This document shows positions 1,159-61,816 of a DNA stretch of 64,000 nucleotides, piece by piece; position 1 is the stretch's first letter, and every line of letters begins with the position of its first letter. The notes below the pieces were generated by a model that was given only the letters and a program-made list of their open reading frames with translations, was not told the origin of the DNA and did no database searches. Made by a program: the position numbers and the translations under genes. The DNA comes from a virus. Location: positions 32,001 to 96,000 of IMG/VR virus record IMGVR_UViG_3300017991_000003. The stretch is one strand, 5' to 3'.

Positions 1159-1830
1159 ATGGTCGTCAAGAAAGTCACCTGGTTCGGCCGCGGCACGATG
1201 CGCGCGCTGGCCCTCCCCATGGGCCGTACGAAGGCCGTTCAACAATCCCTCCTGACTGGGGCGGTCCTCCGTCGCCACGGCCATCAGATGGTCATTCAGG
1301 ATGCCCGCACCGGTCTCGTCGAGCACCAAGGCTCCGAGATCCGTGACGCGCAAGTCCAGAGAATCCCCGGCTTCCGCGGATGGGCGGCCGGCGTCGAGCA
1401 CGGCGTCGCCCCTACTCCGAAGCCGGTACCTAAGCCGCGGCCTAAGCCCGCGCGTGTCCCTGATCCCGCCCCTGCTCCTGTGGCGGAGCCTGAGCCCGCC
1501 CCCGTGGTCGAGCCCGACCTGGTCGACGAGCGCGCTGAGGCGTTGCGTGAGATGGGCTACAACGATCTCCGAGCCAAAGCCAAGCGTCACGACGTCTCGG
1601 CCGGCGGAGGCCGCGATGCCATCATCGAGCGCCTTCTGGCTCTCGAGGGTGTCGACATCTTCTCCGAGACGGAGCCTGAGCCCGTCGAGCCCGAGCCGAC
1701 TCCCGAGGCTGAGGAGGAGGAAGAGCTCGAAGGCCTCGAGGAACCCGAAGAAGAGGCTGCTGACGAGGATGAAGACGACGAGGAAGAGGAAGACCTAGAA
1801 GGCATCCTCGACCCCCTCAACGATCTGTAG
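1159..1830 (+). CDS. Hypothetical protein with Pro-rich linker and polyacidic C-terminal tail
   Basis: 223-aa ORF; PKPVPKPRPKP linker followed by long Glu/Asp run; coding-like composition. Confidence 0.6.
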   Translation: MVVKKVTWFGRGTMRALALPMGRTKAVQQSLLTGAVLRRHGHQMVIQDARTGLVEHQGSEIRDAQVQRIPGFRGWAAGVEHGVAPTPKPVPKPRPKPARVPDPAPAPVAEPEPAPVVEPDLVDERAEALREMGYNDLRAKAKRHDVSAGGGRDAIIERLLALEGVDIFSETEPEPVEPEPTPEAEEEEELEGLEEPEEEAADEDEDDEEEEDLEGILDPLNDL

Positions 1831-1840
1831 GAGGCCCTAG

Positions 1841-2413
1841 GTGCCGGAAGATCCCACAAAGCTCCCAGGGGCGCCGAAGCAGGATGTCGGAGTCAACTCG
1901 GGCCGCCGAGTACTCGTGCCGAACTCCCTGATTCGGCAGCTCCGGTCGATGCTTGCGGACTACCCGGAGACTAACGAGGTCTTTGTAGGCGAGGAGAACT
2001 CCGATGAGAAGCTGGCGCGCTACATCGTGCTGGCCTTCGACGACTGGAACTCCATGCCCCCGCTCCTGCGCTACCAGCTGTCGCCCATCGACGTGGTAGC
2101 GGTCGAGAAGTTCTGGCCCTTCCGGCCCCTGCTCCTGACAGCCTCTCTTCTACACGTCCTTCAGAGCGTGATCATCAAGCTGGCGCGTAACGATGTCCCC
2201 TATCAGGCGGGCAACGTTACGCTCCAACGCAACGCCGTCTGGCGTGGGCTCACTGAGCTCCGCAATCAGATGGAGGCCAAGTATCAGCAGCAGGCACAGG
2301 CCGCTAAGGTCGGCCTCAATGTCAGTGGCTTCTACGGGGACGGCGGCTACCGCGCTTCCCTGACTGAGATGTACGAAGGCCTGGACGTAGACGCTATCAC
2401 GGTGGTTCTCTGA
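1841..2413 (+). CDS. Hypothetical protein
   Basis: GTG start at 1841 preceded by TAGGAGG Shine-Dalgarno at 1827-1833; stop overlaps next start. Confidence 0.6.
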   Translation: MPEDPTKLPGAPKQDVGVNSGRRVLVPNSLIRQLRSMLADYPETNEVFVGEENSDEKLARYIVLAFDDWNSMPPLLRYQLSPIDVVAVEKFWPFRPLLLTASLLHVLQSVIIKLARNDVPYQAGNVTLQRNAVWRGLTELRNQMEAKYQQQAQAAKVGLNVSGFYGDGGYRASLTEMYEGLDVDAITVVL

Positions 2414-2883
2414 TGAAGCACTTCGACGCCTTCCTCGAGGGGTTCCTCAAGCAAGCAGGCATCCAGGAGATCCTTCAGGATCAGCTGGCTGCCTCCAAGG
2501 CCGTCTCGGCCGGCTCAGGCCCCAAGAGACTCTTGGCTAGTCGGGAGCACGTCGACGACCGGTTGAGTCACGGGCTGTCCGGCGCGGCTAGTGTCGGTAT
2601 CCCGGCAACGGCTGCCGGCGCCTTGATCGGCGCAGGCCTCGCCATGCTCATGGACGGTGATCCCATGGCCGGCGCTGGTCTTGGTGCTGTCCTTCTCGGC
2701 TCGAGCGGCGCAGCGGTAGGCCAGGCGGCCGGCCAGCTGAAGGCTGACGAGCAGGCTCTCGAGCGCGCGGGGCTCGAGTCCAAGGTTCCGAACCCCGCAC
2801 GCTTCGCACTCCCTTATCCTGTAGCCAGCGTCTTGGCCGATCCGGGCCATGTCGCGGTGACCAAACGACCCCTCCCGGAATAG
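2413..2883 (+). CDS. Small glycine-zipper protein (paralog family member)
   Basis: ATG at 2413 overlaps upstream stop; GC3-rich codons checked by hand; Gly/Ala-rich GxxxG-like segment. Confidence 0.6.
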   Translation: MKHFDAFLEGFLKQAGIQEILQDQLAASKAVSAGSGPKRLLASREHVDDRLSHGLSGAASVGIPATAAGALIGAGLAMLMDGDPMAGAGLGAVLLGSSGAAVGQAAGQLKADEQALERAGLESKVPNPARFALPYPVASVLADPGHVAVTKRPLPE

Positions 2884-2887
2884 CCCA

Positions 2888-3319
2888 ATGAACGACAACA
2901 TCTACGACGCCCTGTACGGGGCCATCTGTGAGAGCCTGGCCAAGCACGCCGAGGCCATGGAAGCCGCTCCCGCTCCGAAGAAGCAGAAGGACGAGCAGCG
3001 CGCCGCGGTCAAGACCCTAGCGGCTGGCGGTGCGGGTGTCGGTACGTACATGGCCAGCCGCTCTGGTAATCTCAAGCAGACCCAGACCCTGGGCTCTCGA
3101 CTCAGCCGCGGCAGCGCCAAGATTCGCCGCGGGGCTGAGACCCTGAAGGCGGGTTACGAAGGCCGTGCTCCCCAGCTCAAGACAGTGCCGCGTAAGCGGA
3201 TGAAGGCCGTTGGTCGCATGCGGGCGGGTGCTCGCGGCGTCGGCGCCGGTCTCGCCGCTGGCTACCTGGTCGGCAAAGGCTACGACGCCGTCAAGGGCGG
3301 TAAGAAGCAAGAGAGCTAG
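2888..3319 (+). CDS. Small basic glycine-zipper protein (paralog family member)
   Basis: 143-aa ORF, Lys/Arg-rich with C-terminal GAxGVGAGLAAG segment; 5-nt spacing from upstream gene. Confidence 0.55.
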   Translation: MNDNIYDALYGAICESLAKHAEAMEAAPAPKKQKDEQRAAVKTLAAGGAGVGTYMASRSGNLKQTQTLGSRLSRGSAKIRRGAETLKAGYEGRAPQLKTVPRKRMKAVGRMRAGARGVGAGLAAGYLVGKGYDAVKGGKKQES

Positions 3320-3322
3320 CGA

Positions 3323-3781
3323 ATGCGCGAGGCCCTCATCCAGGGCCTGGTCGAGAAGCTGGCCAAGCTGACACGCGAGCAAGACCGGGCACTCCGACGA
3401 GCAGAGCAGGGTGAACAGACCCTCGCTCTGCGCGCCGGTCAGGCCGTGGGCGCTGCCGGCGGTGTAAGAGCTGCTAAGCCCATGGCCCAGAAGGCTGAGG
3501 TCTTGCTGAGGGCCAAGGGGCCGAAGACGGGTCGGACAAAGCTCAAAGGGGCTTACCACGCCGCCAAGGCCCTGGGTCTTGTGGCGGGTACCACCACGGG
3601 CTCGGGCATCGCCGCTAAGCGCGCAACAAAGAAGATTCAGGAATACAAGCGGCGCAAGCTGCAAGGGGTCAAAGGCCCGACGGTCGGTGAGCGGGCGCAC
3701 GCGGTCGCGGAGCAGGCCAAGAAGGAGACGGGTGAGGTCGCCCGGATCCCCGTCGAGTACAAGAACGTTCGGGGGAGCTGA
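3323..3781 (+). CDS. Small basic glycine-zipper protein (paralog family member)
   Basis: 152-aa ORF; basic, Gly/Ala-rich central segment; tightly packed with neighbours. Confidence 0.55.
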   Translation: MREALIQGLVEKLAKLTREQDRALRRAEQGEQTLALRAGQAVGAAGGVRAAKPMAQKAEVLLRAKGPKTGRTKLKGAYHAAKALGLVAGTTTGSGIAAKRATKKIQEYKRRKLQGVKGPTVGERAHAVAEQAKKETGEVARIPVEYKNVRGS

Positions 3782-4674
3782 TGGCTGAGACGCCGGCGAG
3801 ACTCGTCGAAGTCCACGTCTTCCAGCAGACCTCCGATGCACAGGTGGTCGGCTGGACTTACGTGCCGGTAGGGGGCGCGCCTACCAGCGGAGCCACGGTC
3901 AAGGTCGAGCGCTCCTATGTGGAGCACGAGGGCTTCGAGGTCTTGGACGCGGCTGTGACGGCTTCCCAAGGGTTCTACAAGGACACCTCGGTCAACCTCC
4001 ACGACCAGTGGCGGCGGGTCTACTACAGGCTGACACTGGACGACGGTGTCAATGATCCGAAGGTCATTGGCACCTACTGGATGGAGAACGAACTACCGGG
4101 CCCGGCTCGGGGGTTCATTCGCAACACCGAAACCCTCCTCCGGCTCGGCGGTGTGCCCATCCTGATCATGCAGCGGGTCTTCGATACGAGCTCCCGCTGT
4201 ACGAGCTGCTGGGATCCGGTCATGGGGATGACGACGAGCTCGAGCTGCACCGAATGCTTCAACACCGGCTACACGGGCGGCTACCACTCGGCGATCCTGA
4301 CCCTAGGCCAGCTCCAGCCGGCTGCCAAGCAATCCGACCCCTCGGACACACTGCGCCAATCCCGGAACACGGCCATCCTGATCGCCAACTACCCGATCCT
4401 GCGGCCCCGGGACCTGATCATCGAGCTCAACAAGGGCCGGCGGTACCGTGTAGGGGGTATCTCCACGGCCGAGTATGGCCGGGCCCTGATCAACCAGACC
4501 GCGGCTCTGGTGGCCCTGAACCCCTCCGACGTAGAGCATCAGGTCGACCATCCCGACCCTTCGACGCTTGAGCCGCTCTTCCACCGGGTGGGTCCCGTGG
4601 AGCATAGGTTGATCCTGACCGACAACATCCAGAGCCCTGCGGTGGATCCGACCATCACTTCCAACGTTGTCTGA
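3781..4674 (+). CDS. Hypothetical structural protein with four-Cys cluster
   Basis: 297-aa ORF; CTSC...CTEC motif; ATG overlaps upstream stop. Confidence 0.6.
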   Translation: MAETPARLVEVHVFQQTSDAQVVGWTYVPVGGAPTSGATVKVERSYVEHEGFEVLDAAVTASQGFYKDTSVNLHDQWRRVYYRLTLDDGVNDPKVIGTYWMENELPGPARGFIRNTETLLRLGGVPILIMQRVFDTSSRCTSCWDPVMGMTTSSSCTECFNTGYTGGYHSAILTLGQLQPAAKQSDPSDTLRQSRNTAILIANYPILRPRDLIIELNKGRRYRVGGISTAEYGRALINQTAALVALNPSDVEHQVDHPDPSTLEPLFHRVGPVEHRLILTDNIQSPAVDPTITSNVV

Positions 4675-4715
4675 TGCTGGTAGCCGACGCTCCTAACCGT
4701 AAGCTATAGCTGAAC

Positions 4716-5612
4716 ATGGGTCCATCCGAACACCGGCTGCTTGAGGGCATGCGCCAGGCACTCTGCCAGGAGGGGCGGGGTCTGGTCGAGCCTATGGAGA
4801 AGGACGCGGGGACGGAGCTCTCCTTCGGCCGACGCCAGGGGTTCCTGGATGAGGAGCAACCAACACTTCGGGCGGCTACTCGAGGTGCCGCGATTGGCGG
4901 GTCCATCGGGGCCTTGGCCTCGACCGCGGCGACGCTGAGCAAGAAAAACCCGTACAAGCCTAAAACACAACAGGCTCGGGCTACGGGCGCCATGTTGGGC
5001 GCGCCTGTGGGTGCCTTGATCGGCGGGAGTATGGGCTCGGCGGCCCAGCGTCGCAAGAAGATGACGGCTAGAGATAAGCGGATCTTCGATCAAGCCACGA
5101 TAGCTGGAGCGGTGCTAGGTGCCGGGGGCATGATCAAGCGCACAGGCTCCCCGACCAAGGCCCTGCTAGGCGCGGGCCTAGGCGCCGCTGCCGGCGCGTC
5201 TCTATCAGCCACAGGCATGCACGCGGCCCGTATGGGCGGCCGAGCGGCAACGAAGCGACCTAAGGAGTCGGGCCCGTCGCTGGGCCCTGTGGGTAAGACT
5301 CTCGGCCTGGCCGCCACGGGCGCCGGCGCGGGTACTTACCTGGCTGGCCGGCTGGCAGCCCGTAAGGTCCCCGGCGCGGGTGCCACCCAGCAGGGGGCGA
5401 TCAACCAGCTGTTCTCGCGTAAGCAGATGCAGCTGGCCAAGCAGCAGATCCGAGGCGCGCGCCTCAAGGTAAAAGCACAAGCTCCCAAGCACTTTCGCTC
5501 TATGGAGCGCAAGGGCGGGGGTATCGGAGCAGCGGTTGGCGCGGGCTTGGCGTTGGGCCTGCTAGCCGCGGAATCACGGCGACGCAAGAACCGGAAACAG
5601 ACTTCCCAATGA
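4716..5612 (+). CDS. Gly/Ala-rich basic protein (glycine-zipper paralog)
   Basis: 298-aa ORF with repeated GAxxGAxxG segments and basic residues. Confidence 0.55.
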   Translation: MGPSEHRLLEGMRQALCQEGRGLVEPMEKDAGTELSFGRRQGFLDEEQPTLRAATRGAAIGGSIGALASTAATLSKKNPYKPKTQQARATGAMLGAPVGALIGGSMGSAAQRRKKMTARDKRIFDQATIAGAVLGAGGMIKRTGSPTKALLGAGLGAAAGASLSATGMHAARMGGRAATKRPKESGPSLGPVGKTLGLAATGAGAGTYLAGRLAARKVPGAGATQQGAINQLFSRKQMQLAKQQIRGARLKVKAQAPKHFRSMERKGGGIGAAVGAGLALGLLAAESRRRKNRKQTSQ

Positions 5613-6112
5613 ACACGAACGAGACGACCCAGAGCCTGGAGCTCGACCTCATGCAGAAGATCGCCACGATCATGCACGAGGACGACGCTGTGACGGTGGC
5701 TGATCATGACCCCTTCCTGTCCCTGAGCGATGGTCTCGGCGCCCACGTCGAGCCTGAGGAGGAGACCAAGGAAGCCGAGGCCCAAGAGGAGCTCGAGGAC
5801 GTGGAGGAGCCTAAGACGGCTCTGGCCAGTATGTCCATGGCTCAGGTCTTCCACGCGCCTGAGTTCCGCGAGGGCGTCCAAGAGGCCCTGGCGGCTCGCG
5901 CTGAGGAGATCAGCGAGGCTGTGACCAAGGTGGCGAAGACGAGCTGGTACTCGAAGCACGTCACCGGTCTCGGCAAGAAGTCGAAGACCATGCGGGAGCG
6001 TGCGAGCGACTGGGTCGGCAAGAACAAGGGCAAAGCCCTGGCTGGCGCTGCCGTCGGTGGCGGCATCGTCGGTGCCGGCGTCGCCAAGGGCTCGAAGGAT
6101 CCCTACGCCTGA
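5609..6112 (+). CDS. Hypothetical protein with acidic N-terminal half and C-terminal glycine zipper
   Basis: 167-aa ORF; ATGA overlap with upstream gene; C-terminal AGAAVGGGIVGAGVAKG. Confidence 0.55.
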   Translation: MNTNETTQSLELDLMQKIATIMHEDDAVTVADHDPFLSLSDGLGAHVEPEEETKEAEAQEELEDVEEPKTALASMSMAQVFHAPEFREGVQEALAARAEEISEAVTKVAKTSWYSKHVTGLGKKSKTMRERASDWVGKNKGKALAGAAVGGGIVGAGVAKGSKDPYA

Positions 6113-6125
6113 GACTAGGTGACCG

Positions 6126-6947
6126 GTGACTTCGCTAGGCGCTCCCGACTTCGGGGACCTGGATACCCAGGTCTTCAACCCGATGATCTACCCCAGGCGG
6201 GTGATCATCGAGGTACTTCGGAACGTCTTCGCGCAAGCCATCTTCACCGAGTTTCCCGGTCAGACGACCAACCCGTTCCTCTTCGTCACCGACGGAGATG
6301 GGGCGATCGACACGTCCAGCAAGCTGGTTATCGCCGACACGTTCAGCGACGAGCTCAGCCGCACGGACATGAGGCCCACGATCCTCGTGGGTCGAGGAGC
6401 CTTCCGGTTCAACGATCTAGCTGTCGACGGGCAGGGGTTTGGCGGGGCAGCGCCCAGCCTACTCCACGCCCCCGACGGCGAGACCGCGGTCAAGCACCTC
6501 GGTCTTGGTGGTTCGACCAAGAAGGTATTTCAGGACATGACCACCATGTCCATCGCCATCAACTGCTACGCACGTCGCAGCCAGGAGGCGGAGTCGTTGG
6601 CCTGGCACACAGCCGGGTTCATCCGCTTCTACGAGTACGAGCTCAAGCAAGGTTCGATGATCAGCAAGATCGAGAGCCCGCTTGTCGGCGACGTAGCCCC
6701 CGCCAACACCGACTCCCAGCACGATCTGTACCTGGTGCCCATTACACTGGAAGTGCACCAGTCCATCACCTGGGTCAAATCCAACGCAGCCACGGTTGCC
6801 CAGATCCTTGCCGGACTGAACCGCCCCTCGGGCAGTCAGTTCCCGCAGTACTACGGATCGCCAGCGACAGTGACCGCCAAGCCCGCGCCGATCTTCGACA
6901 GCCCCAGTCTGTTGGATCGCTGGTTCAACCTATCCCCGTCGCCCTGA
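6126..6947 (+). CDS. Hypothetical structural protein
   Basis: GTG start at 6126 preceded by AGGTGA at 6116-6121; 273 aa with ordinary composition; preferred over the Arg-rich overlapping frame 6119-6952. Confidence 0.6.
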   Translation: MTSLGAPDFGDLDTQVFNPMIYPRRVIIEVLRNVFAQAIFTEFPGQTTNPFLFVTDGDGAIDTSSKLVIADTFSDELSRTDMRPTILVGRGAFRFNDLAVDGQGFGGAAPSLLHAPDGETAVKHLGLGGSTKKVFQDMTTMSIAINCYARRSQEAESLAWHTAGFIRFYEYELKQGSMISKIESPLVGDVAPANTDSQHDLYLVPITLEVHQSITWVKSNAATVAQILAGLNRPSGSQFPQYYGSPATVTAKPAPIFDSPSLLDRWFNLSPSP

Positions 6948-6956
6948 TCTAAGACC

Positions 6957-9900
6957 ATGGCCCTCGAAAATCTCCGTCCCGATCTCAAGATCGAGCAGAA
7001 GTTCGTGACGGCGGCGCCGCTGGTGCCCGCGTCCTCGCTGCCCGTGGTGCTAGTCGGGCTCAACCGCGACCTTCGCTATCGGCAGCTGACCGACATTAGC
7101 GCCTGGAACGGCGGCGCCTCGGTCTCTGATGTTGACTTCCCCGGTTGGCTTGGCGGTGCCGTTGAGGACACGGACCAGACCGATACGTACCTGCGGCCTG
7201 TCGTCGAGGTCTACCACGACACCTACGGGTGGGCGGCCATCACGGACGACGTGACCTTCAAGAACATGGCGACCGCCCCGGCGATGGACATCGCCTCGGG
7301 TGTCGACGCGGTGTTCGAGGTCGCATCTGGCACGACCGGAGCCTTCGCTGTGGACACCAGCGCCCCGGCGGCTAGTGCCTTTACCGACGCCAACGCGGAC
7401 TTCATCGATGACCAGGTGGCAGCTGGGGACGTCATCAAGGTCGATGGGATCGCCACCTACGAGGTCAACTCTCTAGGCCTTGTGAGCGACACCGAGCTCG
7501 AGGTGCGCCGCATGGACAAGGGTCCCGGCACGGCGGGGGCGGCCGAAGCGGCCAAGATCTTCGTCAGCGCGGAGGACACCAACGACGTTCGCACCCTCTA
7601 CAACACCTCGACGGGGTTCACCGCTGCGGGCGGCTTCACCTCCTCGGGTGTGGCTGTGGGCGATCTGGTCCGCCTAGATCACTGGAACATCGTCAGCCAG
7701 GGCTCAGGCATCACCTTCGAGGCGGTGGGCGCGGATACCACGACTGCGAACAACGCCGGCGACACCGCGAGCGCGACCGAGCGCGTCGTGACGCTGCCGA
7801 CCGCTGACGCGCTTACGGCCTGGGACAACACCACTTACACCGGTGGTGTCTTCTTCACGGCCAACGCAGACGGCGACCTGATGCCGGCTTTCTACCTGAG
7901 CCACGCTGTGGCGGGCCCTGAGACTGTGGCCATCGCCACCGACTACGGCTCCAACCACCTGGTGGATACTGAAGACGCGGACTTCGGTGTGAAGTTCCAG
8001 TTGTTCGACTACGTCTATCGCACGGCCAGCGCCAGCACCACGGGTGCTTTCACCGCTGAGAACGCTGACGGCTATCGGACCTTCACCGACTCCTCGGTCA
8101 CGACCTTCAACGGCAGCCCGACTACTGTTCAGCTCGGCGATCACATCGCTATCAAGGACGAGGATGGGATCTACCGCCCGGTCTTCCAGGTCATCGGCTT
8201 TGGTGACGCGGGTAGCCCGGCCAGCGAGAGCCCGGATACGGACGCCACTCTGGCGGTCCAGCAGTTCGGTGACATCCTCGGCTCGGCGGTCTTTGCCTCC
8301 AACGTCGACTATGTGATCCTCGGAGCCGAGGTCGAGCAGGAGTACCTGGGCGCGACCATCTCGGCCGAGAACGCCGACGCCTACGGTGCTACGACCCGCC
8401 TGCTTGAGGCGACCGGTGAGGACTTCAACGCCGATGGCGTGACCGCTGGCGATCTGGTCTTCAGCGACTCTGGCACCCTGATGTTCATCGTGGTGCAGGT
8501 GGGTGACACCGTGAGCCCGCTGACCTACGACACCCTCGTGGTCGTGGATCACCCCAACGCCGGTACTACTCTCGGGACGACCGATACGATCGCTGAGTTC
8601 GGCTACAGCGTCCGCACCTCGGCTCGCTCTGACTTCCAAGTCAAGCGAGTGGTCGACGCGGACACGCTCGAGATCACCGCGCTCTCGACGACCCCGAACG
8701 TGATTCCGGGGACTCGCTCGATCCGCGGCGCTATCTACTTCCAGACGGCTCCCAGCATTGCGGCCAGCCCCGACGAGCTAGGTACCAACCCCGTGCTGGT
8801 GACTGCTGGCGACTCCGACAGCGCCATCAACTACACCATCGAGAAGACCCTGAGCGGGGCCTCTCTCGAGGGCGATGTCTATGTCACCTACGCGGAGATC
8901 CTGAACACGAACAGCGCTTCGCTGCTCAGCTTCAACTCCTCGACCGTCACGGACGTTCTGGGCGACGCGGTCCCGGGTAACCCGCTGGGTCTGGCTGGCG
9001 CCATCGCTGCCCAGAACACCGATGCGACCATGTACGCGATCCAGGTGACCGCGGACACCTCGGCTGCGTGGCAGACGGCTCTCGAGGTCGCCAAGACCGA
9101 CACGGTCTACAGCCTCGTGCCGCTGACCCAGAACGACACGTACCTGACGCTCTTCCAGAGCCACGTGACCACGCAGAGCCTGCCCGACAACAAGCGTGAG
9201 CGGATCCTCTGGCAGTCCAAGTGGTTCAAGACCCAAGTCGACCGCACGTCCTATGACTCCTCGGTGGACACGTCCAACGCCACGGTCAGCCGATCGGCGC
9301 TCGGTGTTCAGACCCTGACGGTCTACAAGGACGTCGTGGCCCTTGGGGTCATCATCGGTGACGAGGTCACCATGACGACCTTCAACGGCACTTCCGAGGT
9401 CTCGGTCTCCGGCCGGATCACGGACATCGACAACACGACGCCGGCCCAACCGGTCCTGACGATGGTGGCGGACGGCAACGTCCCGCTCTCGACCACGGAT
9501 CTGACGGTTCTGACCTACGACATCAAGTCGAAGAGTCTGTCTCAGACGGAGCTGGCCACGTCGGTCACGACCTACCTCACGGCCCTCAGCGAGCGCCGCG
9601 TCCGCAACATCTTCCCCAGCCGCTATCAGGTGACCTTCACCGACACGACGGGGATCTACGACTCGGGCCTCGGCGATGTCGAGGATTACGAGGTCGGTGG
9701 TGAGTACGTCGGAGCCATCATGGCAGCGCTGCGTCAGGCTCGCGGGCCGGCCCAGCCGCTGACCAAGGTTGCCGGCTCGGGTATCCAGCTCGTGATCGAC
9801 CCCTTCAGCGACTCGGTGACTCTGCAAGACCAGATCATCGATGGCGGCGGCTTCTACATCGAGCAGCCGGCTGGTGAAGGCGGTTCGGTCCAGGCGATCC

Positions 9901-10214
9901 GCGCCCTGACCACGGACGTTACGACCCTGACCTTCGCCGAAGAGTCGGTGACGAGCCAGGCTGACAACTTCGCCCGGAAGCTCCGCGGCGCTTTGAAGCC
10001 TATCCTCGGTCCCTACATCCTGGATGAGGGCTTCTACACGCTGGTCAGCACCATCGCCTCCGGCGTGGTCAACAGCGTGGTTCCCGACGAACTGAAGGAC
10101 GCCCTGCTCCTCTCGATCACCGAAGACGAGACCGCGGCCGACAGCTTCATCATGGAGTACAAGATCGACGTCTGGTTCTCCGGTGCCCGCGGCACGATCA
10201 CCATCTACATCTAG
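6957..10214 (+). CDS. Large beta-rich virion structural protein (candidate tail sheath)
   Basis: 1085-aa ORF, Thr/Ser/Asp/Gly-rich with repeated small GD-x-V beta-like segments; followed by a tube-sized gene; product by context only. Confidence 0.6.
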   Translation: MALENLRPDLKIEQKFVTAAPLVPASSLPVVLVGLNRDLRYRQLTDISAWNGGASVSDVDFPGWLGGAVEDTDQTDTYLRPVVEVYHDTYGWAAITDDVTFKNMATAPAMDIASGVDAVFEVASGTTGAFAVDTSAPAASAFTDANADFIDDQVAAGDVIKVDGIATYEVNSLGLVSDTELEVRRMDKGPGTAGAAEAAKIFVSAEDTNDVRTLYNTSTGFTAAGGFTSSGVAVGDLVRLDHWNIVSQGSGITFEAVGADTTTANNAGDTASATERVVTLPTADALTAWDNTTYTGGVFFTANADGDLMPAFYLSHAVAGPETVAIATDYGSNHLVDTEDADFGVKFQLFDYVYRTASASTTGAFTAENADGYRTFTDSSVTTFNGSPTTVQLGDHIAIKDEDGIYRPVFQVIGFGDAGSPASESPDTDATLAVQQFGDILGSAVFASNVDYVILGAEVEQEYLGATISAENADAYGATTRLLEATGEDFNADGVTAGDLVFSDSGTLMFIVVQVGDTVSPLTYDTLVVVDHPNAGTTLGTTDTIAEFGYSVRTSARSDFQVKRVVDADTLEITALSTTPNVIPGTRSIRGAIYFQTAPSIAASPDELGTNPVLVTAGDSDSAINYTIEKTLSGASLEGDVYVTYAEILNTNSASLLSFNSSTVTDVLGDAVPGNPLGLAGAIAAQNTDATMYAIQVTADTSAAWQTALEVAKTDTVYSLVPLTQNDTYLTLFQSHVTTQSLPDNKRERILWQSKWFKTQVDRTSYDSSVDTSNATVSRSALGVQTLTVYKDVVALGVIIGDEVTMTTFNGTSEVSVSGRITDIDNTTPAQPVLTMVADGNVPLSTTDLTVLTYDIKSKSLSQTELATSVTTYLTALSERRVRNIFPSRYQVTFTDTTGIYDSGLGDVEDYEVGGEYVGAIMAALRQARGPAQPLTKVAGSGIQLVIDPFSDSVTLQDQIIDGGGFYIEQPAGEGGSVQAIRALTTDVTTLTFAEESVTSQADNFARKLRGALKPILGPYILDEGFYTLVSTIASGVVNSVVPDELKDALLLSITEDETAADSFIMEYKIDVWFSGARGTITIYI

Positions 10215-10232
10215 TCCCGACGGACCTGAAAC

Positions 10233-10985
10233 ATGAGTAGCTACGTCAACTGGAGCTGGGCCTCCGAGCACGTTCAAACCGAGATCACTAACGGCGAGTA
10301 CGTCAGCTCGGAGAGCACCCTCGTGCTCGCCGGCCCGTCCCGGCTGTCGATGCTCTCGGGTGATGCTTCCGGCAACCTCTCCACCACGAACTCGGTCATC
10401 CCCTTGGGTCTGATCCAGAACATCGGCATCACGCAGCAGCGCCAGCTGAGCCGCCTGTTCGAGATCGGCTCCAAGCGCGCGTACTTCGTGCCCGGCCGCC
10501 TGTTCTCGAACTTCACCATCGGCCGGATCCTGTTCTACGGTCCCAGCCTCCTGCGCTTGCTCTACGCGCTGGCGCCGCTGAACGACTCGCAGCTGGGTAC
10601 GGTGGGTACGGACCTGAACGTCGACCCGGACAGTCAGGGCGATCCGATCTCGATCCCCACGGACTACGCGGATCTCTTCCAGAGCGGGCAGCTTCAACTG
10701 AAGCCGGGCTACGGTGGTACGATCGGCGAGGCCCAGAACCGGGACTTCTTCATCAACCTAGCCAGTGAGCTCTTCAACGTGCCCTTCGGCATGATCCTGG
10801 TGTTCAAGGACACCCGGAACCGCCCGTATGGCGCGGCCTTCCTCGAGGACTGCTACATCGAGACCCACCAGATGGGTGTCGACGCCAACGCCGTGGTGAT
10901 CGGTGAGTCGGCGACGGGTCAGTTCGACAGTGTGGCCCCGATCCAGCTGGCTACCCAGAGCTCGATCTACGGGCCGACCCCGTGA
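10233..10985 (+). CDS. Hypothetical structural protein (candidate tail tube)
   Basis: 250-aa ORF immediately downstream of the large structural gene; product by context only. Confidence 0.5.
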   Translation: MSSYVNWSWASEHVQTEITNGEYVSSESTLVLAGPSRLSMLSGDASGNLSTTNSVIPLGLIQNIGITQQRQLSRLFEIGSKRAYFVPGRLFSNFTIGRILFYGPSLLRLLYALAPLNDSQLGTVGTDLNVDPDSQGDPISIPTDYADLFQSGQLQLKPGYGGTIGEAQNRDFFINLASELFNVPFGMILVFKDTRNRPYGAAFLEDCYIETHQMGVDANAVVIGESATGQFDSVAPIQLATQSSIYGPTP

Positions 10986-12770: not shown

Positions 12771-13619
12771 TCAGAGATTGGGATCGATGTCCTCGAGCAG
12801 CACCCACAGCTCTCGAAGCCCCTCGTTCTCGATCTGCCTCACACGCTCCCGAGTCCGCCGGTAGAAGCGTGCGAGCTCCCCATAGGGGGTCGGGTTCTCG
12901 TGCCCGAACCCGTAGTGCCGGCGGATGATGTCCTCAGCCTCCGGCTTCAGCTGCGCCAGGGCCCAGTTCAAGAGGTCCCGGTTCTCCTGATTGATGACCC
13001 GATCGAGCATCGCCGGGGCCGGTCCTAGCTGAACCCCCTGCGCTGTGTCCTGGGTGAGCCGGCCGCACGCCTCGGTGATCTCGGTGTCCAGGGTCACCAA
13101 CCGACTATCCCGAGCGTGCCTGTACTTCCGGATCTTGTCCGGGTCCCAGCCGAGCTCCTCGAAGATCTCCTCCTCGTCCGGGTAGTAGCCGTTGGTCTTC
13201 AACATCCGGTACGCCTTGGTCTGGTAGTCGGTGACCAGGGACCGGTGGCGAATAGGCTTGGCTGAGAGGTTGCGGTACTCCCGACGGACCTCGGCGTCGA
13301 TCCACCAGACGGCGTAGGTACTGAACTTGACGTGGCTCTTCGTGCCCTTGACGACCCGGTCAAGGTCGAAATCCCTGAGCGCCTTCATAAGCCCCACGAA
13401 CCCCGCGGAGATCATGTCGTGATAGCGCGCGTCCTTGGCCTCGACGAAGCGCTGCACTCGTCGGATTACCAGGCGGACATTGTGTTCGACCAGCCGCTGA
13501 GCTGCGGCATCATCCCCCTCGCGTAGCGCTTTGACGAGCAGCTCGCGTTCTTCCTCCTTCGACAGGACTGGGTGATCAGCTGCCTTGTGTAGGGCGATCT
13601 CGTCGAAGGACCAGTCCAC
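12771..13619 (-). CDS. RNA polymerase sigma factor, sigma-70 family
   Basis: Region 2-like segment (YHDMISAGFVGLMKALRDFD), region 3 and region 4 HTH (RTRERVRQIENEGLRELW). Confidence 0.8.
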   Translation of the reverse strand: MDWSFDEIALHKAADHPVLSKEEERELLVKALREGDDAAAQRLVEHNVRLVIRRVQRFVEAKDARYHDMISAGFVGLMKALRDFDLDRVVKGTKSHVKFSTYAVWWIDAEVRREYRNLSAKPIRHRSLVTDYQTKAYRMLKTNGYYPDEEEIFEELGWDPDKIRKYRHARDSRLVTLDTEITEACGRLTQDTAQGVQLGPAPAMLDRVINQENRDLLNWALAQLKPEAEDIIRRHYGFGHENPTPYGELARFYRRTRERVRQIENEGLRELWVLLEDIDPNL

Positions 13620-15668: not shown

Positions 15669-17387
15669 TCAGATGATCGCGTTCCAGTCGACGATGACAC
15701 CGGCCTCGTCGAGCAAGTCGTAGAACCAGGTCACGACGTGGACGTAAGCACCTAGCGGGTCCTTGGGGTGGCGCTTCTGGGCCTCCTCGCGCTTGGCACC
15801 GAACTCGTCGGTCTTGGCCAGCTTGTGCTTCTTGCAGGTCTGGCCGAGCAGGCTGAGCAGGGCACGCTGCTGAGTGGAGTTGAGCTTCGAGTAGTCAGGG
15901 CGCACGTTCTCGTCGAACGGCTCCTCTTCTTCCTCTTCTTCCTCTTCCTCCTCCTCGCCAGGCTCCTCCTCGTCCTCCTCCTCAAGATCGTCGAGCTCCT
16001 CATCGCTGGGCTCTTCTTCGTCGAGGTCCTCCTCGTCGAGCTCCTCGTCTTCTTCCTCGTCAGGCTCCTCCTCGTCGAGGTCCTCGTCTTCTTCCTCCTC
16101 CTCGTCGAGGTCCTCCTCGTCGTCTAGCTCCTCCTCGAGCTCTTCTTCTTCGAGCTCCTCGAGCTCCTCGAGCTCCTCCTCTTCTTCCTCCACATCAGGG
16201 GCGGAGGCAGCAACCGGAGCCTCCCGCTTGCCGATCATGTCGTCAGGCGGGATAGGGGTGTGAAGAGGGCCGGAGACAGCGATAGGGAACGCGCGGATCG
16301 TGTCCTCGGGAACGCCGAGCGTATCCGCGGCCTCCGCGAGGCTGGTGGCCAGCACGTAGCGCAGCGTGTCGGAGCCGTCCTCGTCTTGGCTGTAGGCCTG
16401 GTACACGGCATGGACCGACGGGAGCCCGATATGCTCTTGCATGTAGTTGGGGTCACCATCGGGCGCGACGAAGACAGCGCTGACGCCCGGGCAGCAACGC
16501 TCAGCCGCTTCTTTGAGGCGCATCAGGCCCACGGCCCGCCACGCATCGTCAGCGCCTTCGGTCAGGTGCGAGGACGCGGCCACGAGGGCCTCGATCATCA
16601 CATCACCGTCGGTCGGCCAGCGGTCAGAGTCGTCAGTACCGGACGCGGCCCGCTTGAGCAGCTCCTGGTAGGAGTAGTAGAGGTCCAGCTGCGGCTGGGT
16701 GAGTCGGAGCTTGAGCTCGCGGTACTTGGCCTCGCCGGGCTCGAGCCCCTCGTCCTCCTCGTCGTTCATGTCCTGGATCGCCTGCTGCACCCGGCGCTTG
16801 AGGTCTGCGGAGCGCAGCGCGTGCGGGTGACCCAGGGGCTCGCAGAAGGGCAGCCACTCGGAGATGTTGTCCTCGTGGATAGCGCCGGCGCGGACGCCCG
16901 GGCTCAGCTCGACAAGCCGGTCCCAGACCACGTGGCGCAGGACGGCGGGGTTCAGGCTCAGCGACAGCAGCATGGCCCACTGGCCTGCTAGCTGGTTGGC
17001 CTTGGCCGGGTTCATGTTGAGCCGCATGTCCGCGACCTGCTCGAAGCTCTCGGCGGCCGGCAGATCACCGACAGGAGCCGCGACCTCGATCCACGCACCT
17101 TCTCGCAGGTTGAACAGGTGGCAGGCCAGCTCAGCAGTCTGAGCGCCTCGGGCCTGCTGGAGCTCGACACACCGGTCCAGACGCTTGATCGCCGGGAGCT
17201 TGCCGGTGCCGGCGAAGGGGGCTCGCTGCCCCTGTAGGAGGTTCTGGGTTGCGTACTCGGCGCGCTCTTGAGCCTCTTCGAGGGCCACCAGTGCGGCGTT
17301 CTCGGAGCCCGGCTGCGGTTGGGTAGTCGGCGCAGCAGCCGCTTTCTTCTTCGTGGCCTTCTTGGCGGCCTTCTTTTTCTTAGCCAT
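15669..17387 (-). CDS. Hypothetical protein with Lys-rich N-terminal tail and long polyacidic tract
   Basis: Start taken at MAKKKKAAKKATKKK (ATG 17385-17387); about 110 residues of nearly pure Glu/Asp/Leu. Confidence 0.65.
   Translation of the reverse strand: MAKKKKAAKKATKKKAAAAPTTQPQPGSENAALVALEEAQERAEYATQNLLQGQRAPFAGTGKLPAIKRLDRCVELQQARGAQTAELACHLFNLREGAWIEVAAPVGDLPAAESFEQVADMRLNMNPAKANQLAGQWAMLLSLSLNPAVLRHVVWDRLVELSPGVRAGAIHEDNISEWLPFCEPLGHPHALRSADLKRRVQQAIQDMNDEEDEGLEPGEAKYRELKLRLTQPQLDLYYSYQELLKRAASGTDDSDRWPTDGDVMIEALVAASSHLTEGADDAWRAVGLMRLKEAAERCCPGVSAVFVAPDGDPNYMQEHIGLPSVHAVYQAYSQDEDGSDTLRYVLATSLAEAADTLGVPEDTIRAFPIAVSGPLHTPIPPDDMIGKREAPVAASAPDVEEEEEELEELEELEEEELEEELDDEEDLDEEEEEDEDLDEEEPDEEEDEELDEEDLDEEEPSDEELDDLEEEDEEEPGEEEEEEEEEEEEPFDENVRPDYSKLNSTQQRALLSLLGQTCKKHKLAKTDEFGAKREEAQKRHPKDPLGAYVHVVTWFYDLLDEAGVIVDWNAII
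15921..16192. repeat. Low-complexity GAG/GAA/GAC codon tract encoding the polyacidic region
   Basis: Plus strand is CTC/TTC/GTC-rich with internal direct repeats. Confidence 0.8.
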
Positions 17388-18429
17388 GGGCGGGGGTCTT
17401 CTTCTTCTTGGTTCTTTTGTAGGGGAAGCAGTCAAGGCGGTTGCGGCATCGCTTGGCCTTGGCGGTGTTGCGGCTAGAGCAGGCCTTCGGGCCAGCTAGG
17501 GGCTGTCCAAGCTCTACGAGGCGATGGACAGAGTCGATGTAGGGGTCGACGACCATGGGCAGGAAGTCGGGGTCATAGGCGATCTCGTAGGCCCGGTCGG
17601 CAAGTCGGTCCCTGTCAAGATATAGCAACGAAGTGCCCTCACAGAGGTCAGGATCTAGCGGAAAGATTCCTTGACGCCCCTGCTCGACCAAGATGGCCGG
17701 GTAGAGCTTGCCTTGGTAGGTGTCCTTCTCCAGAGGGAGCGGGCCCTGCCGGGGCTTGAGCACGAAGGTTCCGGGCTCTTTGCCCCGGACGCGCGACATA
17801 CTGTCGAACTGGTCCCGCTCCTTGCTCTTCATCTCCAGCACTCGCCAGTGCCCGGTGGGCTTGATCCAGATACCGTCAGCACGGCCGCGGATCATCCACG
17901 CGTCACCGCGATTCTTGGGGTCGGGCCGACGAATGCGGATCTCCTCGTAGCGCCATCTGACACGCTCCCGGGCTAGGACCCGATCGCAGTTGTTCTCGTG
18001 GACTACCCCATCCGCATCACGGTAGGCGACGGTGTTGGTGCACACCTCCTCGGGCCTGAACCCTTCGACGACCTGGTGACAGCTCATACACCTCCACAGG
18101 CCCCAGAGGCGCCCGACGTCGCCTGTGATCTCAGGTAGGATCACGGACTGGAAGTGGTCATGAACAGCGTGCCCAGCTGCGAACAAGCGTAGCGCCTGGG
18201 GACTAAAGCCCTGAGCGTCGCCCCACATATCGTGGAGGCGCTTGAAAGCGTCTTGGACCATACACCCGTTGCAGAGGCTGCTTGGGTTGAAGGCTCTGGA
18301 GACATACCCCTCACGCTCTTCTCGACGGAGAAGCGCCTGGTCGATGGCCGGCGTCCAAGACTGATCGGCCTCGACCCTCGTCGTCATCTTGCAGATGAAG
18401 TCGACGATGTCTTGTGTGAAGGTGTTCAC
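17380..18429 (-). CDS. Putative PD-(D/E)xK-type nuclease-like protein with Cys clusters
   Basis: 349 aa; CNGC and CMSC pairs plus D...E-x-K-like RADGIWIK...VLEMKSK; weak assignment. Confidence 0.5.
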   Translation of the reverse strand: MNTFTQDIVDFICKMTTRVEADQSWTPAIDQALLRREEREGYVSRAFNPSSLCNGCMVQDAFKRLHDMWGDAQGFSPQALRLFAAGHAVHDHFQSVILPEITGDVGRLWGLWRCMSCHQVVEGFRPEEVCTNTVAYRDADGVVHENNCDRVLARERVRWRYEEIRIRRPDPKNRGDAWMIRGRADGIWIKPTGHWRVLEMKSKERDQFDSMSRVRGKEPGTFVLKPRQGPLPLEKDTYQGKLYPAILVEQGRQGIFPLDPDLCEGTSLLYLDRDRLADRAYEIAYDPDFLPMVVDPYIDSVHRLVELGQPLAGPKACSSRNTAKAKRCRNRLDCFPYKRTKKKKTPAHG

Positions 18430-19914: not shown

Positions 19915-21525
19915 TCACCCGTCCTCTTGTTCGAGGCCGGCCTCGAGCGCATCGAGGGGGTCACCTCCCTCTGCTTCTTCTGAATCTTCGGCAGCCCCAG
20001 CGGCTGGCTGATGTCCTTTGAGTCGGTCATGGGCTTCGTGAATGAGATCCTGGAGAGGGTCGTCGAAAGGCCCATAGAGATGGGCCTCTGCGTCGAGGTG
20101 GCCTCGGAAGGTCCGCGGCATGATTGCGGCAGCCAGCGGATAGCGCAGGCGATAACCGATGTCGGGCCGGCTCAGGAAGGCCTTGATGTCCGCGATCTTG
20201 GTGAAGGTGCGGCCGAGGATCTCATACCCCCGCGAGGTCTTCTTGAACCACCTGTCATCAGGCGGCAGCTCCCAAGCGCCCTCAGATAGGGCTTTCAGGA
20301 GCTCAAACACGCGCGCACCCTCGTCGGTCTCGCCGGCTTCGTAGTGGACACGGTCAAACAGACGATCCTTGAGGAACAGCCGAGCCTGGGCGCTAGCGTT
20401 GGTGCCGCCCCCGGACGCCTTGTCCTTCTTCATCGTCATCGTCATCTCCGCCATGGCGGCGGGCTCACGGTAGCCGCCGTCCCACGGGTTGTAGCGGGTG
20501 CGGATCTCCATGTTCTGCATGAGCGCGTACTTGAGGGCGTTACCGCCCGACGCGATCTTGGAGGGACCGCCGTAGCCCCCGGGGCCCGACTGGATGTTGG
20601 CGCGCCACTGGTTGGTCTGGATGAACGTGGGCATCACGCCCGACTGGTTCCAGGCCTCGTTTTGCGCGCTGATCAGCTTCGGGTACAGGCGGGACAGCTC
20701 ACGAGCCCGGGACGCGGTCTGCTTACGACCCGCCAGGTCCTCGTCAATCGCAGCCATGGCCACACTGTCGAGGATGATCAGATCGGCAGCGCCGTTCTTG
20801 ATCAGGTGGGAAGAGAGGATCTCGACCTGGTTCAAGGACGTGATGCGGGCCACAGCTACTGTCGAATCCGGGCTGATGAGTAGGCCCTCTTCGACCTCCT
20901 CGTACTCAGCCATCGGATCGCTCATGTCCACACGATCCGCGATCTTGAACCCCCAGGACTGTGCCCATAGCGGGTCGAAGTCACCCTCGACATCGATGAA
21001 GAGGACGGTCGACACATCGTTGGCACCGCAGCCGCAGCGGATCACGTTATCCCGCTCACCCAGGTCATCATGGAAGGTGAGGATCGGAGTCATGCAGCGC
21101 CGGCAAGTGCGCTGGAAGGAGCCGGCCAGTAGGTAGCACATGAGCGACTTGCCCACATGCTCCGGGCCAATGATCTGCGTCCGGGTGCCGATGGCCATGC
21201 GGATGTTCATGTCCATCTCGACCAGTCCCGTGAACAGGAGCCGGCGGCGGAACTCAGCTGCGGCCTGCGTCGCTCGCCAAGAACCCGTGGGCTGCTTGTT
21301 GAGCTCGACTGTCGCAGACTTCATCCCGTCGCTGAACCGAGCGCTGGTGCGTGTGTCGCGCGGGCTCTTCACTCCGGCCGTCAGCGCCCGCTTCGGAGCG
21401 TCGTCCTTGGCTGCGGCCTTCTTGGTCCGCTTCTTGGCCTTCTTCTTGGTCGCCTTCTTCTTGGTGGCCTTCTTGGTCACCTTCTTTGTGGCTTTTTTGG
21501 CGACCTTCTTCTTCTTGGCCGCCAT
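19915..21525 (-). CDS. RecA-like recombinase with Lys-rich N-terminal tail
   Basis: Walker A IIGPEHVGKS, Walker B LIILDSVAMA, GGNALKYA matching RecA GGNALKFYA; N-terminal AKKKKVAKKATKK tail. Confidence 0.6.
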   Translation of the reverse strand: MAAKKKKVAKKATKKVTKKATKKKATKKKAKKRTKKAAAKDDAPKRALTAGVKSPRDTRTSARFSDGMKSATVELNKQPTGSWRATQAAAEFRRRLLFTGLVEMDMNIRMAIGTRTQIIGPEHVGKSLMCYLLAGSFQRTCRRCMTPILTFHDDLGERDNVIRCGCGANDVSTVLFIDVEGDFDPLWAQSWGFKIADRVDMSDPMAEYEEVEEGLLISPDSTVAVARITSLNQVEILSSHLIKNGAADLIILDSVAMAAIDEDLAGRKQTASRARELSRLYPKLISAQNEAWNQSGVMPTFIQTNQWRANIQSGPGGYGGPSKIASGGNALKYALMQNMEIRTRYNPWDGGYREPAAMAEMTMTMKKDKASGGGTNASAQARLFLKDRLFDRVHYEAGETDEGARVFELLKALSEGAWELPPDDRWFKKTSRGYEILGRTFTKIADIKAFLSRPDIGYRLRYPLAAAIMPRTFRGHLDAEAHLYGPFDDPLQDLIHEAHDRLKGHQPAAGAAEDSEEAEGGDPLDALEAGLEQEDG

Positions 21526-31841: not shown

Positions 31842-32302
31842 CTGTTGGTGTTCGGGGGGTTGATGTTGTCACACTGCTCACAGGTCCAGGTGGCGCCGGC
31901 AGGTACTTCCCCCTCAGCCTTGCGGATCTCTTCGATCTCCTTGCGGAAGGCCTCCTCGTCAGCGGCCCACCACTGGCCGGGCGCCTGCCCGTCGAGCTGG
32001 AGGTATCCCATGATCTGGACGCCCTCGCTCAGGTAGCGCTTGATCACCGCCCGCCGGGCCTTGGATTGCATCTCACCCGGGACCAGGATTCCGAAGGTCA
32101 GAAGCGCCCGGTAAGCCTCGTTGAGATGATCGTAGAGCGCTGCCCTGATATTGCTGTGCTCGGTTCGAGCGGCATCACCTAGCCGCTGATTGCGGCTGAC
32201 ATGGGCGAGGGCGTAGTCCAGCGCTACGATGCGAGACTCGCAGTCCTTGATGCGCTCGAGGCAGGTGCTGAAAGCCTGCTCGATGATTGGTGTGTCGGTC
32301 AT
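31811..32302 (-). CDS. Hypothetical zinc-ribbon protein
   Basis: Start set at internal Met giving ATGA overlap with the upstream gene stop; C-terminal CEQCDNINPPNTNRCVNCQ. Confidence 0.5.
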   Translation of the reverse strand: MTDTPIIEQAFSTCLERIKDCESRIVALDYALAHVSRNQRLGDAARTEHSNIRAALYDHLNEAYRALLTFGILVPGEMQSKARRAVIKRYLSEGVQIMGYLQLDGQAPGQWWAADEEAFRKEIEEIRKAEGEVPAGATWTCEQCDNINPPNTNRCVNCQEAFA

Positions 32303-61394: not shown

Positions 61395-61816
61395 GTGGTG
61401 ATCAGGGGTGGGTGGAATCGACGTAGGACGGTCAAGACCGCCTGGGTGTCTTCGTTGATGTCTTGCTCGGCTAGTAGGTGATCGAGCCGGCGCATCCAAT
61501 CACGTAGGGTCGTGAGCTGCTCGGGGCCCATGCTCGCCGGAGGGTCGACGACAGGACGTCGGTCGCTCTCGTCTCGGATCAAGTTGAAGCGGATGTTGTT
61601 GATCCTTCCACCGTCTAGCGCAACTGGATAGGTGCGTTGGAAGATCTGACCAAGAGCCTCGATCATCTCTCGAGTAAGACCCGTCCCCTCAAGATCGAGA
61701 AGGTGCGGTCGGTTCTCGAGGATCCGAGATAGAAGCTCCTCGCGTCTCCGGATAATGGCCTGGTGATCATTGTGTCGATCACGCGCGCCTTGCACGGTGT
61801 CCAGAATGGTGGTCAT
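61391..61816 (-). CDS. Hypothetical protein (operon member)
   Basis: 141 aa; ATGA overlaps at both ends (61813-61816 and 61391-61394). Confidence 0.55.
   Translation of the reverse strand: MTTILDTVQGARDRHNDHQAIIRRREELLSRILENRPHLLDLEGTGLTREMIEALGQIFQRTYPVALDGGRINNIRFNLIRDESDRRPVVDPPASMGPEQLTTLRDWMRRLDHLLAEQDINEDTQAVLTVLRRFHPPLITT

Follow-up and report, generated by a model that had tools for sequence, protein, structure and literature searches.

A shared N-terminal motif joins five glycine-zipper proteins encoded among neck genes to the head-core proteins of an uncultured contractile-tailed phage

The internal proteins IPI, IPII and IPIII of phage T4 carry a capsid targeting sequence and are cut by the prohead protease gp21 at (L/I)xE. 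The T4 capsid targeting sequence was reportedly the subject of work by Mullaney and Black in 1996. In podoviruses, the ejection proteins gp7, gp20 and gp16 of P22 and gp14, gp15 and gp16 of T7 form a trans-envelope channel. These proteins are larger than those described below, and we know of no tag or protease processing in them. In SPN3US, head and ejection proteins bear N-terminal propeptides that are cut by the prohead protease gp245 at AXE (PMC10052503, PMC5694885). Here we describe five genes in a 64,000-nucleotide (nt) stretch of viral DNA, positions 32,001 to 96,000 of IMG/VR record IMGVR_UViG_3300017991_000003 (hereafter the window), whose products combine glycine-zipper segments with a short N-terminal tag that recurs in the head-core proteins of the same phage. 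The reading we favour, which we hold at a little under an even chance, is that the five are prohead-targeted, probably protease-processed internal or ejection proteins that would serve as DNA-binding and membrane-active cargo. We infer their targeting, cleavage, virion presence, ejection and membrane action from the make-up and context of the genes.

The five genes are open reading frames (ORFs) at exactly 2413-2883, 2888-3319, 3323-3781, 4716-5612 and 5609-6112, all on the plus strand and beginning where the initial annotation had placed them; we name them by their first nucleotide (g2413, g2888, g3323, g4716 and g5609). They are genuine coding genes. Their GC content at third codon positions (GC3) is 0.73-0.84, the coding-type value for this 64% GC genome, and their orthologs are syntenic in relatives whose backbone identity is 40-74%. 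The genes are tightly packed, with overlaps or gaps of 4-42 nt. A scan for promoters and terminators within the cluster found no internal site resembling either, and a scan of the cluster for direct DNA repeats gave nothing meaningful. Ortholog families were built from five related contigs (L002, L004, L006, L007 and L008). The products are of 156 amino acids (aa) with an isoelectric point (pI) of 6.1 and 8% Lys plus Arg for g2413 (family A), 143 aa and pI 10.3 for g2888 (family B), 152 aa and pI 10.8 for g3323, 298 aa and pI 11.7 for g4716 (family D), and 167 aa and pI 4.8 for g5609 (family E). The initial annotation had called all five Lys/Arg-rich zipper proteins. Zipper segments are indeed present in all five, but only g2888, g3323 and g4716 are basic.

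Each of the five proteins opens with an amphipathic helix closing in [LIVMF]-x-K-x-A. The tag of g2413 is MKHFDAFLEGFLKQAG (nt 2413-2460), with FLKQA at nt 2443-2457; that of g2888 is MNDNIYDALYGAICESLAKHAE (nt 2888-2953), its end reading ..YDALYGAICESLAKHAE, with LAKHA at nt 2936-2950; and that of g3323 is MREALIQGLVEKLAK (nt 3323-3367), with VEKLA at nt 3350-3364. The tag region of g4716 covers aa 1-32 (..GLVEPMEKDAG, nt 4716-4811), with MEKDA at nt 4794-4808, and that of g5609 covers aa 1-19 (..LELDLMQKIAT), with MQKIA at nt 5651-5665. Within the first 30 residues the motif [LIVMF]xKxA is found in all five cluster genes as compared with 2 of the 66 other window genes (Fisher P = 1.6e-6), these two encoding a sigma-factor-like protein and a Lys-rich repeat. 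The tag is retained in the orthologs of all families. In family B, where identity is 17-42%, just six columns are invariant, and K19 and A21 are two of them. Alone among the five, g5609 has the motif beyond its N-terminus as well (VTKVA, nt 5921-5935). The five N-termini are charged amphipathic helices in which we found no signal peptide, hydrophobic core or Cys lipobox.

The same motif marks the proteins of the head core. 5' of the major capsid gene lie genes for three acidic scaffold-like proteins and for proteins of 165 and 469 aa. The N-terminal half of the 469-aa protein matches the head maturation protease family PHROG 18299 (E 1.6e-6), and the protein also matches Bacillus phage G gp19 and proteins annotated as prohead proteases in Rhodococcus phage E3 and in phages of Gordonia and Xanthomonas; the family is related to the proteases of Bacillus phage G, cluster C mycobacteriophages and Rhodococcus phage E3. 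A sequence search of the Protein Data Bank (PDB) with profiles of the backbone genes and the protease returned nothing. The motif occurs in 3-4 copies per scaffold-like protein in this phage and in up to 9 in relatives. It stands at residue 23-25 of every capsid protein ortholog, with A replaced by G in two; on the source contig the capsid protein N-terminus reads ...EFNALFGEALSRGGEAMDKVAAATG, with the motif at about residues 23-28. In the protease it is found at residue 25-31 of 4/4 orthologs and again in their C-terminal halves, and in the protease of this phage the sites at 31 and ~250 bracket the protease-homologous region (residues 28-254). Protease and scaffold-like proteins together hold 17 motifs in 898 aa, or 18.9 per 1000 aa; the non-structural window genes, 14,270 aa in all, have 1.6 per 1000 aa (Poisson P = 4e-13).

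This pattern in scaffold and protease is common to the window clade and two distantly related cultured phages, Vibrio phage D181 and Salmonella phage Arash. The motif density in Arash is 5.7 per 1000 aa in the head-core region versus 0.20 across 1-50 kilobases (kb), and one scaffold-like protein of D181 has nine copies. In its longer form, [LIVMF]xKxA[SAG], the motif is repeated 3-9 times per acidic scaffold-like protein and stands at the ends of the protease catalytic domain (L001 493-1902 and 1863-3408, L010 3385-6615, L011 2214-7171). The longer form is a candidate cleavage or docking motif of this protease lineage. A predicted cut of the Ala|Ser type would recall the assemblin sites of herpesviruses.

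In Arash and D181, motif-bearing zipper proteins are encoded within the head-core cluster itself. They include Arash gp221 (183 aa), whose N-terminus GLLKAAGVTEL resembles the family A tag, Arash gp224 (206 aa, pI 10.7) and a 102-aa protein of D181 (pI 11.3). D181 has a further zipper protein of 151 aa (pI 10.6) in the neck slot. Far from the head cluster, Arash also encodes a 289-aa 'structural protein' with five head-core motifs (gp242; L009 19272-20141, record 174466-175335), which by its motifs may be another head-internal or scaffold-like protein. In the window clade the tag precedes varied cargo, namely zipper proteins, K/P-rich zipper-less proteins of 76-78 aa (L006 and L008) and the acidic family E. 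To judge from this variety, the tag is portable.

The second feature common to the five is the glycine zipper. The pattern [GAS]xxxGxxx[GAS] matches five times each in g2413, g2888 and g5609, six times in g3323 and 18 times in g4716, as compared with 0-2 times in neighbours of 190-340 aa. The pooled Gly-Gly spacing of the five proteins peaks sharply at i+4, with 34 pairs observed versus 15.8 in shuffles. The zipper count exceeds that of composition-matched shuffles for g3323, g4716 and g5609 (P <= 0.005; g3323 P = 0.005), and for g2413 and g2888 taken singly the difference from such shuffles is not significant (P ~0.12-0.13). The literal GAxxGAxxG that the initial annotation had read in each protein is present only in g4716. 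Zippers are kept in relatives at 44-58% GC, and the genomes with g2413 and g2888 orthologs have 48-58% GC; an artefact of GC-rich codons was ruled out as their origin because they persist at these compositions.

The zippers are set in different frames. In g2413 they form a helical hairpin (aa 61-103, nt 2593-2721) of two moderately hydrophobic arms (Kyte-Doolittle 1.76 and 1.41) with a DGDP turn between them, and the C-terminal region is conserved as GQL..D..L...GL....P.P in 8 orthologs. The AlphaFold2 (AF2) model of this family (mean predicted local distance difference test score, pLDDT, 79.7) has helices at 2-14, 17-31, 44-79 and 84-118 and a small beta element. Helices 44-79 and 84-118 pair in the model as a long helical hairpin with the zipper at its tip; searches of the PDB and BFVD with the model gave no significant fold match. 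The zippers of g2888 lie at aa 44-58 (nt 3017-3061) and aa 113-129 (nt 3224-3274), and those of g3323 at aa 35-51 (nt 3425-3475) and aa 81-97 (nt 3563-3613). Five zipper segments are spread along g4716 (nt 4872-4922, 4974-5039, 5094-5207, 5307-5351 and 5514-5570); the last is the most hydrophobic of them (Kyte-Doolittle 1.68) and is followed by RRRKNRK. We rejected g4716 as a tape-measure protein, being too short and located upstream of the sheath. In g5609 a conserved acidic core (aa 70-104, nt 5816-5920), supported by orthologs, precedes a basic tail (aa 110-167, nt 5936-6109) with a zipper at nt 6029-6085; the last 58 residues have a pI of 10.3. Family E is conserved and acidic, and its members in L004, L006, L007 and L008 lack the zipper tail, which, on this ortholog comparison, is a lineage-specific C-terminal addition.

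None of the five proteins scored above threshold in Pfam, PHROG or NCBIfam scans, Pfam giving no match at E <= 0.1. We compared them with the curated zipper families PF13488, PF13441, PF05433 and NF053611. They show the small-xxx-Gly-xxx-small helix periodicity of these families, and by gathering threshold none belongs to a Pfam or NCBIfam glycine-zipper family. The match of g4716 to YiaD_Gzip_OmpA is sub-threshold (E 0.0028, 17.4 bits, cut-off 175), as are the matches to Gly-zipper_YMGG (9.8-14.1 bits versus a cut-off of 28.9), and the Pfam and NCBIfam scans found no OmpA domain in the five. A literature search for glycine zippers together with virions and bacteriophages returned nothing relevant.

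Apart from the tag, the comparisons gave no sign that the five proteins are copies of one ancestor. An all-against-all BLASTP comparison gave nothing significant, the best E being 0.04 over 15 residues. In profile-profile alignments of the families (hhalign), only 9-42 N-terminal columns align, or in one case a 37-column zipper stretch. A link between family B and a putative family B2 at E 1.6e-5 came from two L006 and L008 sequences that belong to family B, and it vanished on regrouping. Paralogy over the full length was rejected on these comparisons. The proposal that the five are diverged paralogs is therefore not supported, because only short profile alignments were obtained and because the g5609 family has members without a zipper.

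The families change fast. The five genes are 36-64% identical to their counterparts in L002, as compared with 71-79% for backbone genes, and by this measure their rate of change exceeds that of the backbone. The count of small genes differs among relatives, with 0-4 ahead of the stopper gene and 1-3 behind it. Families A, B and D are clade-restricted, with 8-9 relatives in 5.8 billion clusters and, for family D, 5 cluster representatives in 1.84 billion; a search for further relatives of family B (g2888) returned only clade members. In the L002 ortholog of g4716, a tag-plus-zipper unit, VEPLDKVATETGSGRQHS followed by a zipper, is tandemly duplicated. L002 also has two tandem copies of g5609 (9141-9923 and 10021-10647) with the first ~100 residues identical; their long Ala/His/Gln/Lys-rich repeat tails (AAHQAAAHQAAAQQ...) differ, and a zipper ends just one copy.

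The favoured reading can be spelled out as follows. The tag, a 10-30-residue amphipathic helix of the form Phi-x-x-Phi-Phi-x-x-Phi-x-K-x-A, would serve for prohead targeting, for recognition by the prohead protease, or for both. Behind it would lie a fast-evolving module, in g2888, g3323, g4716 and the g5609 tail a strongly basic Ala/Gly-rich chain with 1-5 zipper helices, and in g2413 a near-neutral long helical hairpin with a two-arm zipper tip. The tag would bring the proteins into the assembling prohead core, where the protease would probably trim them at or beside K-x-A|[S/A/G], and the basic parts would come to rest on the packaged DNA. At infection the proteins would exit via the tail, like the T4 internal proteins and the SPN3US ejection proteins, and the zipper helices could go on to associate with one another and to enter or disturb the host membrane. 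The proposal in the initial annotation that the five are virion-internal, ejection or membrane-interacting proteins rather than neck proteins is thus favoured, indirectly, by the tag that they share with head-core proteins. The positional argument offered for it is weak.

Several observations weigh against this reading. The motif was spotted post hoc in these very sequences. The family profile alignments are poor (E 5e-4 to 0.07, probability <35%) and lend the homology of the tags weak support. With a 17-residue weight matrix trained only on the scaffold, capsid and protease sites, which discriminated weakly as an unbiased detector of the tag, only g3323 and an internal g5609 site exceed 95% of the null; because this matrix does not place most of the five N-termini above the null, the shared core must be taken as short, about 5 residues. 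The motif is also not universal to the protease family, since the scaffold and capsid proteins of the more distant Bacillus phage G and Rhodococcus phage E3 lack it; in phage G the protease alone has it, and E3 is all but devoid of it. The genes sit among neck genes, not head-core genes, in this clade. The zipper segments are no more than marginally hydrophobic (Kyte-Doolittle 1.0-1.8, mostly <1.3 outside g2413 and the C-terminal zipper of g4716), and their summed Hessa free energy is positive. The virion proteome table of Arash lists the analogues gp221, gp224 and gp231. Read literally, the 100% coverage that it gives for gp221, gp223 and gp224 contradicts removal of the N-terminus; the table is unreliable, with 116 'virion' proteins, some at 100% coverage from two peptides.

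A more ambitious form of the favoured reading, which we consider improbable, extends it to a clade of ~180-190-kb myoviruses comprising this phage, Arash, D181 and relatives. An undescribed, portable head-loading tag and protease site, Phi-x-x-Phi-Phi-x-x-Phi-x-K-x-A|[S/A/G], would load the head with a rapidly diversifying cocktail of zipper proteins. After ejection these might oligomerise in the host inner membrane as a conduit or a depolarising pore, with the basic parts escorting the DNA.

Among the competing explanations, the one that survives best, though we consider it improbable, takes the five as assembly-only factors, that is, scaffold-like proteins or chaperones whose motif would admit them to the prohead core or expose them to degradation by the protease, and which would be expelled before or during DNA packaging, be absent from mature virions and never enter the host. 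The motif reaches its highest frequency in the acidic scaffold-like proteins, a class whose members other phages degrade and lose, the family E core is itself acidic and scaffold-like, and the multiple motif copies in g5609 and in the L002 ortholog of g4716 would fit degradation to peptides. However, strong basicity and a high Gly/Ala content set three of the five apart from acidic helical scaffolds, and outside g5609 the motif is N-terminal only, so that cleavage would leave a large intact product. Detection of the analogues gp221 and gp224 in the Arash virion preparation, crude as it is, also speaks for proteins that stay in the virion.

The surroundings of the genes bear on a second alternative. 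The window has a GC content of ~64%, and the same protein set is present on contigs of up to 193 kb. Its genes for a tail fibre, a primase and a DNA polymerase of family A assign it to a large tailed phage; the source is an uncultured ~190-kb contractile-tailed phage. A search of cultured phages for DNA nearly identical to the window found no match, nor did a tblastn search of phages with the major capsid protein, and a scan of IMG/VR with the product of gene g3781 returned nothing beyond the source contig, given there as IMGVR_UViG_3300018080_003942 (91.6 kb), on which the window begins at about 15.3 kb. The window opens, at 1-1063 on the plus strand (ORF 41-1063), with the C-terminal 340 of the 420 residues of the major capsid protein (PHROG major head protein, E 5e-5); the gene starts 5' of the window and is complete at L001 4021-5283 on the contig. 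The genes that follow are also on the plus strand. The 190-aa protein of g1841 (1841-2413), a conserved neck-module protein at the adaptor position, is a homolog of Arash gp233 (hhalign probability 97.8%, E 6.5e-13). The 297-aa protein of g3781 (3781-4674) has a stopper/T4 gp14-like domain according to its AF2 model (pLDDT 72), whose best PDB matches are the phage 812 stopper and the T4 neck protein gp14 (E ~1e-3); its identity to the orthologs is 74% in L002, 48% in L004, 45% in L006, 44% in L008 and 40% in L007. This gene splits the five zipper genes into three and two. The 273-aa protein of g6126 (6126-6947) is conserved and, by its place directly 5' of the sheath gene, at the tail-terminator position, its similarity to Arash gp235 not being significant. 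A 1085-aa sheath-position protein (6957-10214) is matched by tblastn to D181 and Arash gp236, the latter with a weak Phage_sheath_1 match, and a 250-aa tube-position protein (g10233, 10233-10985) has Arash gp237 as its counterpart (E 3e-26). Downstream, both Arash and D181 have a gene for a PAAR spike. The five zipper genes are thus dispersed among neck genes and precede those for the sheath and tube.

Position alone would suggest neck proteins, since neck and tail genes flank the five and lie between them. The five could then be minor neck, portal-channel or tail-lumen proteins (plugs, binders of DNA ends or decorations of the neck, for instance) whose genes are expressed together with those for the adaptor, stopper and terminator. 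Their placement between g1841, g3781 and g6126, the tight coupling in one operon and the single basic zipper protein of D181 in the same neck slot are all as expected on this account. We nevertheless regard it as unlikely, more so than the first alternative. The variable number of small genes on either side of the stopper gene is hard to fit to a fixed neck stoichiometry, and the g2413 model matches no neck protein in the PDB at E <= 1, whereas g3781 matches two. In Arash the neck module lacks such zipper genes, and zipper proteins are found in the head-core cluster instead. A neck role would also leave unexplained why capsid, scaffold and protease have the tag.

Less likely still, if only by a shade, is that the five are late host-membrane proteins, such as holins or antiholins, superinfection exclusion proteins or moron-type effectors, merely embedded in a structural operon. 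The two adjacent hydrophobic segments of g2413 about a tight turn are class II holin-like, g4716 ends in a hydrophobic zipper and a highly charged tail, the weak database matches are consistently to membrane glycine-zipper families and membrane hairpins, and fast evolution with variable copy number would suit such genes. Against this, most zipper segments are too weakly hydrophobic for insertion by Sec/YidC, the five lack a signal peptide or lipobox, and domain scans of 1-11 kb found no endolysin. The hairpin arms in the g2413 model, at ~35 residues, exceed a bilayer crossing, and the conserved N-terminal tag shared with head proteins would again be unexplained. Finally, that the five are unrelated low-complexity Gly/Ala-rich ORFans of a GC-rich genome, with zipper and tag as chance patterns, is very improbable and largely refuted by conservation. 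In its favour, the zipper counts of g2413 and g2888 do not exceed those of composition-matched shuffles, BLASTP gave no significant pairwise similarity and the ~5-residue core was found post hoc; against it, Gly i+4 periodicity is twice that expected, zippers and tag are kept at 44-58% GC, and the tag is position-specific in all five genes and enriched in head-core proteins of independent genomes.

Other features of this module and of the window deserve mention. The product of g3781 has four invariant cysteines (CxxCWD...C..C), which suggest a zinc site, and an N-terminal fibronectin/Ig-like beta-sandwich; for a neck stopper this is an unusual elaboration. After the capsid gene, window 1159-1830 (plus strand) encodes a protein whose N-terminal domain is conserved and is joined by a linker rich in Pro and Glu to a SAP-like helix-turn-helix at the C-terminus (..YNDLRAKAKRHDVSAGGGRDAIIERLLALEG), a DNA-binding motif unusual for a head or neck module protein; its L007 ortholog has a weak Pfam SAP match. 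The frame is backed by orthologs, and a crude GC3-based caller had chosen the overlapping 1301-1798. In relatives, the head/neck module harbours mobile elements, namely an intein-like Hint and LAGLIDADG insertion in the protease-position gene (L004 1-1682), an HNH endonuclease after the capsid gene (L006 4027-4524) and a GIY-YIG/NUMOD3 endonuclease after the adaptor-position gene (L008 4699-5361). On the minus strand of the window, two large proteins (15669-17435 and 19915-21525) have extremely Lys-rich, histone-tail-like N-termini (MAAKKKKVAKKATKKVTKKATKKKATKKKAKKR...), a 667-aa protein (59496-61499) has a weak match to Prok-JAB (JAMM deubiquitinase-like; E 2.9e-5, just under the Pfam cut-off), and 12771-13619 encodes a 282-aa sigma-factor-like protein (..FVGLMKALRDFD..). 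A Sigma70_r2/r4 gene lies downstream of the tube gene in one relative, and Arash also encodes a sigma factor.

If the tag is a true targeting or processing signal, it would provide a simple sequence rule to find head-internal and ejected proteins in poorly annotated large myoviruses; ~80% of Arash genes are hypothetical. It would also be a candidate means of loading these capsids with foreign proteins, a role that the targeting sequence has filled in T4. On the same condition, the zipper cargo would represent ejected effectors of a new kind, relevant to the passage of contractile-tailed phage DNA through the inner membrane, and the conduit or pore reading would define a new class of membrane-active ejection proteins in these phages. 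If the tag is no such signal, clade-restricted ORFan families and a head-specific motif have still been described.

How, then, do the five proteins compare with the systems already known? They resemble the T4 internal proteins in being several small, mostly basic, unrelated-looking proteins with a common short N-terminal amphipathic tag, and in being fast-evolving, dispensable-looking cargo of a myovirus. As in T4, a prohead protease is encoded, and the recurring motif, here a putative cleavage site, is found in scaffold, capsid N-terminus and protease as well. Unlike IPI, IPII and IPIII, to which they have no sequence similarity (no Pfam, PHROG or NCBIfam family match), they carry zipper helices in the cargo and lie among neck genes, and their targeting and cleavage are predicted from the genes. 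The motif is [LIVMF]xKxA[SAG] instead of (L/I)xE, and the tag is analogous, not homologous, to that of T4. With the ejection and inner-body proteins of phiKZ-like giant phages such as SPN3US they would share N-terminal propeptides on head-internal proteins, multiple motif copies in propeptides and scaffold-like proteins, protease autocleavage and a large myovirus as their source; the recurring motif differs from the AXE of SPN3US, the protease is of a different family, and the proteins are much smaller and zipper-rich. The GxxxGxxxG periodicity, and in g2413 the two-arm hairpin with its tight turn, are like those of bacterial zipper membrane domains (PF13488, PF13441 and YiaD_Gzip_OmpA), yet the scores are far below the cut-offs, a lipoprotein signal and OmpA are lacking, and the setting is a phage structural operon with strongly basic flanks around the zippers. 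Like the ejection proteins of podoviruses, the five are proposed to be virion-internal and membrane-active on ejection, and their genes lie beside head-completion genes; unlike podoviruses, these phages have a contractile tail, with a PAAR-type spike in relatives, so that the need for a channel is less obvious. On the favoured reading, the five would add a new version to the T4 internal proteins and SPN3US ejection proteins, marked by a motif that is specific to the head and has not been described before.

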